From NCBI GenBank assembly GCA_964016885.1, contig OZ024740.1, forward strand, positions 239,134,001 to 239,198,000: DNA of 64,000 nt, written 5' to 3'. Position 1 is the stretch's first letter. Each line of letters begins with the position of its first letter. Shown here in pieces: positions 1-63,920 of this stretch. The notes under the pieces are model-generated. The model worked only from the letters and a program-made list of their open reading frames with translations. It was not told the DNA's origin and searched no databases. This stretch comes from Eledone cirrhosa. Taxonomy: Eukaryota. The position numbers and the translations under genes are program-made.

Positions 1-51
1 CATAAGGAAAGTATATACTTTCAAACGTTCAATCATCTGACAGGAAGGTAT

Positions 52-94
52 ACGATGCTGACGATAGCTAATAAGCTTGAAACTAGTTCATCGT
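52..94 (+). ncRNA. Minimal type I hammerhead ribozyme, family H1
   Basis: acgatg-CTGACGA-tagct/aata/agctt-GAAA-CTAGT-T-catcgt; stem I acgatg/catcgt, palindromic stem III ACTAGT; related copies at 11517 and 12303. Confidence 0.8.
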
Positions 95-295
95 TCTTTT
101 GTCAGTGTTGAACAAAAGGGCAACGATGGTTGCCGAACACTGTACGGCTTAATTCGGGCTGTTTGTTTACAAACAAACCGAACATTATAATAAATGTTCG
201 GTAAACCCATACGTACATATATATATGTGTGCATGTATGTATATATATACATACTACTGCACGTCTGTATACATATATGTATGTACGTATACATA

Positions 296-341
<46 letters not shown>

Positions 342-1060
342 CACACATATATATGATATTTATATGTAAATATGTAATCATTATCGTCTTGTTTACCTAC
401 TATTTATTTTTATTCTTAGTTTCTATATTTTACTGCTCATTTGTCGTTGCCGTGGTATACATTACCTAATACCTTATCCTTCTCTTATACACTTGTTTAC
501 TAAGAAACATTTTTACATATTTACATACTTCTAACGTTCTTTTATATAATTATGCCTCATTCTTTACACGCTCCTTACTATTTTCTAATAATCTTATTGT
601 CTCTTTCTGTCACTCTATAGATATGAAAACATTCGGTGTTAGCATTGTTTCGAGCGTATTTTAACCGTAAACAACACGTAACATAGTTTAATTGTAAAAT
701 ACATACTTAGAACTTGGCAACGTGTAAGCATCTTATTTTATTCAACCTTTTACTTACACTAACCTTCACAAATACTACTTTCCATCTTGTCATATAAAAA
801 GTATAACCAGAAAATTTTAGTCTTTAAAGAATTTCACACAGAATTAATTATAATATTAATAGCCAAAACCTAATTACCTAATTAACAATGAATAATTTTG
901 TTATACTTTGGGAGGGTCATGTTGCCAATAAGAAACACACGCACCAGTTGCTTTCACTTCAGTTTATTATATATTTATAAATTTATAAATTTACAAATCT
1001 ACAAACTTATAAATTTCTGGTTGGTTGGTTGGTTCCACAACCAGATAGTTGTTTATATAT

Positions 1061-9270: not shown

Positions 9271-9348
9271 ATTGCCTTGTCTGATGAACGAATGCGGACG
9301 TTTCTTGTATTCGTCTTATTCGGGAAACCTCTGGTAACGAGGTAATTA
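9269..9348 (+). ncRNA. Type I hammerhead ribozyme, family H4
   Basis: taattgccttgt-CTGATGA-acgaat..attcgg-GAAA-cctctggT-A-acgaggtaatta; 12-bp stem I with G-U pairs, GUA cleavage triplet, directly after (TA)n. Confidence 0.8.
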
Positions 9349-11516: not shown

Positions 11517-11557
11517 CGATGCTGACGATAGCTAATAACCTTGAAACTAGTACATCG
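11517..11557 (+). ncRNA. Hammerhead ribozyme, family H1
   Basis: cgatg-CTGACGA-..-GAAA-CTAGT-A-catcg; stem II has one mismatch. Confidence 0.75.
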
Positions 11558-11700
11558 TTCCTGTGTCAGTGTTGAACAAAAAGGTGACGTGGTTGCCTAA
11601 ACACTGTACGGCGTAATTCGGGCTGTTTGTTTGTTTACAAACAAACCGTGTTCGGTAAACCGATACGTGCATATATATATGTGTGCGTGTACGTATATAC

Positions 11701-11827
<127 letters not shown>

Positions 11828-11878: not shown

Positions 11879-12002
<124 letters not shown>

Positions 12003-12302
12003 AATTGAAACAAAATGAAAACGAAATTTCATTTCTCACTCTTAGTATGGCACTTACTTAAATGTAAGTATGCATGTATACGTACATACATATATGTATA
12101 CAGACGTACAGTAGCATGCACATATATATATATATATACATATATATATACATATGCATACAGGTACACATACATATATGCACGTATCAGTTTAGCGGCG
12201 CTAACGTCGCTTTGTTCGTTTGTAAACAAACTGAACAGCCTGAATTTATGCCATACGGTGTTAAGGCAACCACGTCACCTTTTTGTTCAACACTGACACA
12301 GG

Positions 12303-12347
12303 AACGATGTACTAGTTTCAAGCTTGTTAGCTATCATCAGCACCGTT
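12303..12347 (-). ncRNA. Hammerhead ribozyme, family H1 (best copy)
   Basis: Minus strand aacggtg-CTGATGA-tagctaacaagctt-GAAA-CTAGT-A-catcgtt; canonical core, GUA site. Confidence 0.85.
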
Positions 12348-12380
12348 TACCCATCTGCCAGATAGTTGAACGTTCGAAAG

Positions 12381-12428
12381 TATATACTTTCCTTATGAAA
12401 ATTAACGGCTGAGCAGCCTAATTTGCAT
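12381..12428 (-). promoter_or_regulatory. Putative octamer + TATA promoter upstream of the H1 hammerhead
   Basis: Minus strand ATGCAAAT-34 nt-TATATA; same spacing at 25683 and 53704. Confidence 0.5.
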
Positions 12429-12880
12429 ATTGAGTGAGTTAAATCGGTCAGGCATACCGAAAACGATAAATTGAAACAAAATGAAAACGAAATTTCATTT
12501 CTCACTCTTAGTATGGTTCAGTTTGTTTACAAACGAACAAAGCGACGTTAGCGCCGCTAAACTGATACGTGCATATATGTATGTGTACCTGTATGCATAT
12601 GTATATATATATGTATATATATATATATATATATATGTGCATGCTACTGTACGTCTGTATACATATATGTATGTACGTATACATGCATACTTACATTTAT
12701 GTATATATATATATGTATAAATTATATCTCATAAAATAATATAACTGGATTTTCCACATTATACATATTGTTAGCACCCCAAACACTTAAATTGGGTTTA
12801 TATTTTAATATAACCTAATGTTTGTTGAGTGAGATGGTTACCAGTCAGAGTTTAGCTTTAAACTATCTCTGTTATTGTAT

Positions 12881-25627: not shown

Positions 25628-25682
25628 ACGCACATATATACATATAATGCTAATTAATCCTAGGCGGTCGAGTTTGCACTAT

Positions 25683-25835
25683 ATGTAAATGAGCATCTCC
25701 AGCCGATGTTTCACACGCAAAAAGCATATGAGCTGTAGCTTAGTCTTGTCTCAGCATCGAGTGAGTAAATGTCACTAATTATGGATAACAATCCAGAAAC
25801 ACGTGTATCACCTGTTTCTGAGAAGCGAGACTTTT
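25683..25835 (+). other. Degenerate octamer/TATA plus hairpin-enclosed hammerhead element (family H8)
   Basis: ATGTAAAT-34 nt-catatg; agtcttg..tctcag / ctgaga..cgagact enclosing ctaatta (degenerate core)-tggat/atcca-GAAACACGTGTA. Confidence 0.5.
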
Positions 25836-53250: not shown

Positions 53251-53615
53251 TATTGTTTCTGTCTTTCTATTCTTAACTTCTCTCCTACTCTCGTTTCTTT
53301 TCTGTTGAAGGACCAACGCCCAATACATTGAGGACACTTCTCTTTCCTTTCAGACAGGCGTTAACCTAACAACAGTTTTCGTAATTTGTTCTACGTGTTT
53401 TTCACTCTATTTTTATTGTTGACTTTGCCACACGCACACACACACACGCGCGCATACACACACACACATTTTAAATATACATATATATATATAAATATTT
53501 CGTATCTCCAAGGAAATACGGTTTTAGGAAGCCGTAGCTATGCAAACACCGGGGGGGGGGGGGGGGGGGGGGGGCTAACGCCCTCTGGTGATGTCCAGCA
53601 GAAGCAAGGGGGATA

Positions 53616-53659
53616 ACCGTCTATGCATTTCAGGCTTAACTGGCCTTCGTCAGGACGGT
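53616..53659 (-). ncRNA. Hammerhead ribozyme, family H9
   Basis: Minus strand accgtc-CTGACGA-aggc/cagttaa/gcct-GAAA-tgcaT-A-gacggt; enclosed by gtccagcag (53593) / ctgctggac (53686). Confidence 0.85.
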
Positions 53660-53703
53660 CCCTCCCACCGCTTGCGACTGCTGGACTAGAAGACAGGCGA
53701 GAA

Positions 53704-53752
53704 AATATAGTTTCCTCGTCTGTGTAAATGAGGTGATTAATCTCATTTGCAT
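53704..53752 (-). promoter_or_regulatory. Putative octamer-PSE-like-TATA promoter of H9
   Basis: Minus strand ATGCAAAT-gagattaa-TCACCtcatttacacaga-cgaggaaac-TATATT. Confidence 0.5.
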
Positions 53753-53788
53753 ATGAAGCTGCATAAGTTGGCTCAACTTAATCCTATT

Positions 53789-63794: not shown

Positions 63795-63920
63795 TATTTA
63801 TTTAAATAACAGATTAAAGTTTAAGCAAAGAATCGCTGCTTTCACCCTTCTGAAGATCCCGTTAAGAGTGAAAGCAGCGATTCTTTGCTTAAACTTTAAT
63901 CTGTTATTTTAATAAATAAT
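63795..63920. repeat. ~55 bp-arm inverted repeat
   Basis: aaataacagattaaagtttaagcaaagaatcgctgctttcac / gtgaaagcagcgattctttgcttaaactttaatctgttattt; the loop contains CTGAAGA. Confidence 0.85.

Follow-up and report, generated by a model that had tools for sequence, protein, structure and literature searches.

The promoter of newt satellite 2 is composed of octamer and PSE elements, and the Pol III promoter of the Schistosoma Sm-alpha satellite is of the tRNA type. Like the elements described here, satellite 2 of newts and salamanders consists of tandem units (~330 bp) that contain a hammerhead, together with an internal promoter of the snRNA type used by Pol II, and Sm-alpha resembles them as a hammerhead repeat with an internal promoter, which is attributed to Pol III (PMC2220036). 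Our elements differ from Sm-alpha in their PSE/TATA-type motifs and are set apart from satellite 2, by description only, by an invertebrate host, many divergent families, a TATA box and two host-matched layouts.

Metazoan non-LTR retrozymes are also similar: their non-coding units are a few hundred bp long, are repeated in tandem and exist as monomers and multimers, have a type I hammerhead whose palindromic stem III is weak, are found together with Penelope elements and give stable predicted circles (the circles reported here are likewise predictions), as described by Cervera and de la Pena (2020, PMC7229834) and Li et al. (bioRxiv 10.64898/2026.07.22.740005). Unlike them, the units here reach 466-500 bp; moreover, these retrozymes "seem to lack promoters" (PMC7761336), whereas at least eight families here carry snRNA promoter motifs matched to the host. 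The bioRxiv study ties non-LTR retrozymes to Penelope pLTRs, and does not use the word "promoter"; for plant LTR retrozymes, promoters have been reported (PMC9695139 and PMC12029980). Penelope-like elements (Penelope/Neptune) share (TA)n targeting, 5' inversions, partial tandems, two 3' ends and a type I hammerhead with our units. The combination of 5' inversion and (TA)n has been described for Penelope (Craig et al.), and the Penelope tail with two 3' ends has been attributed to an RT that starts at two internal sites (PMC11167929). The units here differ in having no ORF and a short stem II subtype, and the promoter-like module reported below is missing from the Penelope-linked hammerhead clusters sampled. 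No snRNA-type promoter of an invertebrate retrozyme was found among the top-ranked papers of the literature searched, most subscription papers, Repbase and supplements being outside its scope. A search pairing hammerhead ribozyme with bimaculoides gave no match, and "ribozyme" is absent from the accessible text of the O. vulgaris repeat annotation (PMC13282606).

Here, we analysed a window of 64,000 nucleotides from Eledone cirrhosa, starting at C1:239,134,001 of a microsatellite-rich assembly of 3.0 Gb. The initial annotation had described three hammerheads (H9, H1 and H8), each downstream of an octamer, a spacer of 34 or 35 nt and a TATA box, with a purine run and a TCACC/CAGCC motif in between. 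Octamers, boxes and spacers were all found in these places, as were the purine runs and a TCACC (H9), TCAGC (H1) or CCAGC (H8) motif. The features are as follows.

53742..53753, minus strand: H9 12-mer TATGCAAATGAG with the octamer (53752-53745), identical at -77/-78 of the host U6 gene L001 and of MRP
53732..53736, minus strand: H9 PSE-core-like TCACC, 27 nt 5' of the TATA box (PWM score 1.3, p 0.06)
53704..53709, minus strand: H9 TATA box (TATATT), 35 nt past the octamer; predicted start near 53679
53593..53686, minus strand: H9 hairpin around the hammerhead
53615..53660, minus strand: H9 type I hammerhead, core intact, palindromic stem III ATGCAT, predicted cleavage after 53622
53490..53780, minus strand: whole F9 copy of H9 with (TA)n at its end; the unit is 324 bp in the tandem locus L026
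12418..12429, minus strand: H1 12-mer TATGCAAATTAG with the octamer (12428-12421), identical at -78/-80 of the U6 gene L002 and both tRNA-Sec loci
12408..12412, minus strand: H1 PSE-core-like TCAGC, 26 nt 5' of the TATA box (score 3.0, p 0.03)
12381..12386, minus strand: H1 TATA box (TATATA), 34 nt past the octamer; predicted start near 12356
12303..12347, minus strand: H1 type I hammerhead, core intact, palindromic stem III ACTAGT, predicted cleavage after 12310
12000..12703: whole F1 insertion of H1, more than one unit (12000-12637, minus strand) with an inverted arm (12556-12703, plus strand)
1..351, plus strand: second copy of the F1 subfamily; the window edge interrupts its promoter and leaves the TATA and the hammerhead (58-88)
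11517..11781, plus strand: third F1-subfamily copy, 5'-truncated just 5' of the hammerhead and without promoter
25682..25693, plus strand: H8 12-mer TATGTAAATGAG with the octamer variant ATGTAAAT (25683-25690); the majority of F8 copies have ATGCAAAT
25699..25703, plus strand: H8 PSE-core-like CCAGC, 26 nt 5' of the TATA-like box
25725..25730, plus strand: H8 degenerate TATA (CATATG), 34 nt past the octamer; F8 mostly has YATATA
25768..25812, plus strand: H8 decayed hammerhead with a mutated core

The H9 start prediction is based on the distance from TATA to start, 30 in all four host U6-class genes scored. H9, H1 and H8 are copies of non-coding units of 320-490 bp with a type I hammerhead, which in the case of H8 has decayed. 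The core of the H8 copy in the window is broken (CTAATTA). In its family (F8), an intact core was found in 11 of the 28 anchored copies (one further copy, of 29 in all, lacked an anchor); ATGCAAAT is kept in 22 of these 28. F8 copies are ~80% identical, as in an old family, and the window copy is probably old and dead. An outer stem starting 23-25 nt after the TATA box had been described for all three elements. This applies to H9 (23 nt past the TATA start, fold z -4.15) and to the inner stem of H1 (25 nt), but the outer stem of H1 starts at 15 nt and that of H8 at 18-24 nt, with weaker enclosing-stem z scores of -1.9 and -1.4, respectively.

With Rfam, H1 had an HH9 match below threshold (E 0.033), and H9 and H8 had no match; the hammerhead call is therefore based on the pattern of the core and the covariation of stem II. 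A whole-window Rfam scan was swamped by microsatellite-driven miRNA matches, with no hammerhead among the 150 of 206 matches listed. The alignment of hammerheads from seven families was invariant at 12 core columns and represented one subtype. Its stem II was paired in 25 of 28 cells with 11 double changes, a result reached in 0 of 500 shuffles, a control that ignores relatedness. The initial annotation had called the families unrelated. This is true of the bodies of F9, F1 and F8, among which no relation is detectable (local-alignment z of at most 2.1 for the TATA-to-core and post-hammerhead parts of H9, H1 and H8), while F1, Fx and F7 are related; it is not true of the spacers of H1 and H8, which are weakly related (z 1.9-3.4), nor of the hammerhead, of which all seven aligned families share the one subtype.

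The motif common to H9, H1 and H8 exceeds the octamer and is the 12-mer TATGCAAATKAG. Across the genome, there are 29,531 exact matches to the pattern TATGCAAATKAG-N29-37-YATATA, compared with 533 to the reversed control. We also used an unbiased sample of 80 evenly spaced stretches of 10 kb from contigs C1-C5 (800 kb), in which the module occurred 15 times (0-4 times in ten shuffles). Eleven of the 14 exact 12-mers in this sample had a TATA downstream, and a relaxed hammerhead likewise followed 11 of the 14 (background rate 3.3%). Strict hammerheads numbered 72, with none after shuffling. The initial observation is confirmed. Conversely, only 10 of the 72 sampled hammerheads, all within 3 of 14 clusters, have the 12-mer. 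The octamer is not a general hammerhead feature, and a second lineage (F13/L133) has the layout of host U1-U5 genes without it. The module is real and conserved, and is found in a known class of element.

Units are arranged head-to-tail and lack an ORF; among the frames listed in a scan for ORFs of at least 220 aa over the loci studied, those over units were microsatellite artefacts, and the units are shorter than an RT. Unit lengths are 324 bp for F9, 456-502 bp for F1 and 466 bp for the F1-related Fx. Tandem arrays comprise F1 units of 456-502 bp, 30 Fx units of 466 bp, 11 L133 units of 310 bp and F9 dimers at 324 bp, and no tandem with two hammerheads was seen for F8. The 12-mer is also present in the families F5, F6 and F7 and in a few single copies. 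The start of a dispersed copy usually lies in the tail of the preceding unit, so that such copies often hold more than one unit, promoter included, and they often have a 5' inversion. There are two preferred 3' ends before (TA)n, at ~390/448 in F1, ~362/434 in Fx and ~250/291 in F9. The 5' ends of copies did not clearly accumulate at either the predicted start or the predicted cleavage site, in samples that were small and partly biased. Circles predicted from one cleavage site to the next have fold z scores of -5.7 to -9.7 (30 shuffles), the F1 value being inflated by a TA tract; in F9 and Fx, a near-perfect inverted self-copy follows the 12-mer and makes a hairpin in the predicted circle. The Fx unit is covered by contigs of four runs from three organisms, which is not informative on expression and suggests that Fx also occurs in organisms B and C. 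The elements of H9, H1 and H8 are very probably retrozymes. The proposal of an undescribed small-RNA retroelement system is not supported, as the units are built like non-LTR retrozymes and a snRNA-type Pol II promoter has a precedent in newt satellite 2.

To relate the module to the host, upstream regions of U1, U2, U3, U4, U4atac, U5, U6, U6atac, U11, U12, 7SK, RNase P, MRP, SRP and tRNA-Sec were compared, the genes being placed in their usual polymerase classes. At all 20 loci of the Pol II snRNAs U1, U2, U4, U5, U11 and U12, a YCAGY-like core was found at -55 to -58, with a TATA-like box 23-29 nt past it; AATTW lies 32-34 nt before the core in 19 of the 20, and the 12-mer in none. 7SK and RNase P have the same core, located 33 nt before the TATA. 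All seven U6-class loci, namely U6 (three distinct promoters), U6atac, MRP and tRNA-Sec (two), have the 12-mer at -77 to -80 and a TATA at about -30, with a spacer of 38-40. U3 carries TATGTAAAATARG 34 nt before its TATA, an octamer-like motif with 2-3 mismatches to the 12-mer. Runs of at least four T occur in six of six host Pol III RNAs, at the ends only. Left out were five of the ten U6 array loci (with a repeat over the 12-mer), three of four U6atac loci without any promoter, U4atac (whose core at -72 fits neither class) and three SRP loci with neither motif. The loci displaying the layouts are L001, L002, L164, L168, L309 and L310 as against L073-L078, L169-L171, L254-L267, L247 and L083. 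Such layouts would be useful for guide-RNA expression in Eledone cirrhosa. Many host snRNA promoters also have a distal ATTACCTCCCTT near -265 in common.

The initial annotation had placed a snRNA-type promoter on mobile, self-contained ribozyme units; the layout does match that of the genome's own snRNA genes, while the use of a particular polymerase is a prediction. The intervening motif agrees with the host PSE, TCACC/YCAGC corresponding to the PSE-like core of U1-U12, 26-27 nt 5' of the TATA. This distance is 27 in 32 of 35 F9 copies, 26 in 39 of 46 F1 copies, 25-27 in 22 of 31 F8 copies, 26 in 10 of 14 F5 copies, and 26 and 27 in the single copies of F6 and F7. It remains at 26-27 whether the octamer-to-TATA spacer is 34-35 (F9, F1, F8, F7) or 39-40 (F5, F6). 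F9, F1, F8, F5, F6, F7, F13 and L133 all have a YCAGY-like core that is followed at 23-29 nt by a TATA-like box, and Fx is ambiguous; another family, F12 (L134), was left out of this count, as it has TCAGC 26 nt before TATA in one copy and CCACC there in typical copies. For this post hoc hypothesis, a PWM built on 14 host Pol II promoters gave permutation p values of 0.059 (F9), 0.027 (F1), 0.052 (F8), 0.065 (F5), 0.020 (F6), 0.22 (Fx), 0.004 (F13) and 0.002 (L133). In the lineage lacking the octamer, AATTW-33-core-26/27-TATAAG was found in 15 of 15 F13 loci (L288-L302) and 11 of 11 L133 units, which are counted as one lineage because similarity guided the choice of the F13 loci and all L133 units come from one array. 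This lineage gives the strongest independent support for a Pol II-type layout, and its U1-U5 arrangement suggests that the octamer is dispensable.

The U3 promoter resembles the elements in its octamer-like motif, 34 nt and TATA, aligns without gaps to H1 and H8 and differs in the 2-3 mismatches to the octamer. It ranked first of 17 host promoters for H9, H1, H8 and Fx, significantly only for H8 (p 0.008).

Judging from these sequence comparisons, the module is probably a functional promoter, a reading that we hold with good confidence, and it is likely that the ~30,000 repeat copies transcribe themselves and spread via circular RNA, without the dependence on neighbouring genes that a recent review proposed. 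By analogy, they would work like newt satellite 2. We consider it moderately probable that the whole cycle runs through Pol II, from a snRNA-type promoter and tandem transcription to a self-cleaved circle and reinsertion by a Penelope-type RT. Unit anatomy, tandem arrays, motif match with spacing and insertion ends are observations, and we infer the rest of the cycle. SNAPc would bind the YCAGY core and TBP the TATA box, with a POU/Oct factor presumably on the adjacent 12-mer. Transcription would start ~30 nt past the TATA start and continue through the T5-T7 tracts into the next unit. Because the predicted start lies inside the 5' arm of the enclosing stem, the full stem would form only in multimers or circles. 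Two hammerheads, probably acting as a dimer via the palindromic stem III as known from other retrozymes (PMC6155905), would excise a monomer containing the promoter of the next unit, and its ligation would yield a circle carrying its own promoter; RtcB-type ligation and copying of circles by RT are described for other retrozymes (PMC7229834). A Penelope RT/GIY-YIG protein would then prime at (TA)n targets from two AT-rich sites of the unit and copy more than one round, and only multimeric loci would act as source elements. An upstream promoter is copied only if it is in the RNA template, and since the copies contain the promoter, the template would be a multimer or circle.

The insertion ends with their (TA)n signature would fit a Penelope-like RT. 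One head-to-head junction was found: at L124:4366-4376, a 5'-truncated Penelope element faces a 5'-truncated F1 copy with ~9 nt between them, which is a possible two-template insertion. The L124 element belongs to a young Penelope-type family (copies ~98% identical); its ORF has a weak Pfam RT match (E 0.012) and an Atlas placement with RT/HTH_animal clusters. Among 29 other long copies of this element, one adjoins F1, across a TA tract. The F1/Penelope adjacencies at L235, L237, L242 and L332, with TA tracts or unrelated DNA between the two, were read as nested insertions.

The main alternative keeps the same retrozyme cycle and takes the module as a captured U6-class type 3 Pol III promoter, with partial read-through of T-runs giving the dimers, or assumes that both polymerases are used. 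A U6-type Pol III promoter was our first reading as well, and was downgraded by the spacing and T-run tests. A TATGSWAATKAG 12-mer 5' of the TATA, which marks the host U6 class, is present in the elements, and the exact 12-mer was found only 5' of Pol III genes (in 7/7 U6/U6atac/MRP/tRNA-Sec loci, against 0/20 Pol II snRNA loci), which counts for this alternative and against the Pol II model. F5 and F6 have an octamer-to-TATA distance of 39-40, like that of host Pol III genes, and F5 has its best PWM site at 40 and tRNA-Sec as its closest host promoter overall. Fx fits better at 33-34 nt (AATTAGT at 34, p 0.018) than at 25-27, and the outer 3' ends of F9 and Fx coincide with T-runs. The Pol II model is further weakened by single-family p values of only 0.05-0.065 for F9, F8 and F5, by the octamer families, in which neither an AATTW box at -33 nor the distal ATTACCTCCCTT near -265 of host promoters was seen by inspection, and by the 12-mer hairpin in F9/Fx circles, which could shape the spacer for RNA reasons. 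In addition, PSE plus TATA selects Pol III in vertebrates, and the rules of polymerase choice vary between animals (PMC1761439). On the other hand, H9, H1, H8, Fx and F7 have 33-35 nt between octamer and TATA, so that the abundant families are 4-5 nt short of the host U6-class spacer of 38-40, and the U6 class, which has the identical 12-mer, lacks a YCAGY core at 26. Sense-strand T5-T7 runs lie inside F1, Fx, F9, F13 and F5 units and argue against Pol III; F5 has a T5-T10 run ~25-30 nt past the hammerhead in five of five copies checked. The second hammerhead could be reached only by read-through of T5-T7 runs, and Pol II fits both this and the spacing. The outer end of F1 is 8-9 nt beyond the T-run, a coding Penelope element also ends T-rich, and the lineage without octamer has a pure U1-U5 geometry. 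A Pol III promoter thus appears unlikely as the general explanation, and the Pol II model is preferred.

It is less probable still, and in our opinion quite improbable, that the module is a vestigial or structural passenger and that retrozyme RNA stems from read-through of host transcription. Read-through without a promoter has been proposed for animal retrozymes generally, is the current answer in the review literature (PMC7761336), and would agree with the pairing of the motif region in predicted circles; however, families with unrelated bodies have nothing in common apart from the 12-mer, the spacing of the core, the TATA and the core of the hammerhead, and the second lineage has a different host layout at the same hammerhead-relative position. 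The idea that the units are pseudo-LTR pieces of autonomous Penelope, with the module as its mRNA promoter, could draw on the presence of a promoter and of type I hammerheads in Penelope pLTRs (Craig et al.; PMC11167929) and on the derivation of retrozymes from pLTRs (bioRxiv 2026.07.22.740005), but is very improbable, given head-to-tail units with no ORF, 0 of 12 F1/Fx/F9 hammerheads downstream of a same-strand Penelope ORF in the 800 kb sample (9 of 32 in three clusters lacking the module), and one Penelope family examined without the 12-mer upstream of its ORF in three of three loci scanned.

With non-LTR retrozyme anatomy and the snRNA-type promoter of newt satellite 2 already known, what appears to be new here is that the geometry agrees with that of the host's own snRNA promoters, that this match occurs in many divergent families and that there is a second layout without octamer. 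The genome offers a precise alternative to the read-through answer, in which the motifs are named, the start site is predicted, the polymerase is predicted from host geometry and two layouts serve as internal controls, as well as a way for an upstream promoter to be inherited by a retroelement. In addition, the ~30,000 exact modules scattered over the genome offer potential sites for Oct, SNAPc and TBP. As a tentative and somewhat doubtful generalization, there may be an old animal clade of circular-RNA retroelements, in which a promoter inside a self-cleaving circle allows an upstream SNAPc/TATA promoter to be retrotransposed and at least two lineages hold different host layouts. In that case, satellite 2 would exemplify a general rule, and animal retrozymes would have to be seen as SINE-like elements that transcribe themselves from an upstream-type promoter, not as passengers of read-through.

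Several other observations were made. Further hammerheads or Penelope 3' fragments of the window are located at 9281, 13436/13278, 18804/18685, 39639, 57900, 1100, 63266, 63515 and 63800-63913; several of them form inverted pairs, and none has the 12-mer at the module position. In F12 (L268-L287), an abundant family of hammerheads, CCAAT and TATAAATA lie upstream and a 5' tract is rich in GT; the family may represent a Penelope pLTR whose promoter is of the mRNA type. The U4atac locus L308 has GATTAATCAG at about -72, with 9 nt in common with the F9 spacer. L003-L012 (C19:31.78-31.84 Mb) form a tandem array of variant U6 genes, in which a repeat insertion replaces the 12-mer 5' of the TATA in 5 of the 10 loci. 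The Fx array L243-L244 has units of 469 bp whose variants partly alternate (units 8/10 and 9/11 are identical), which hints at a higher-order repeat.
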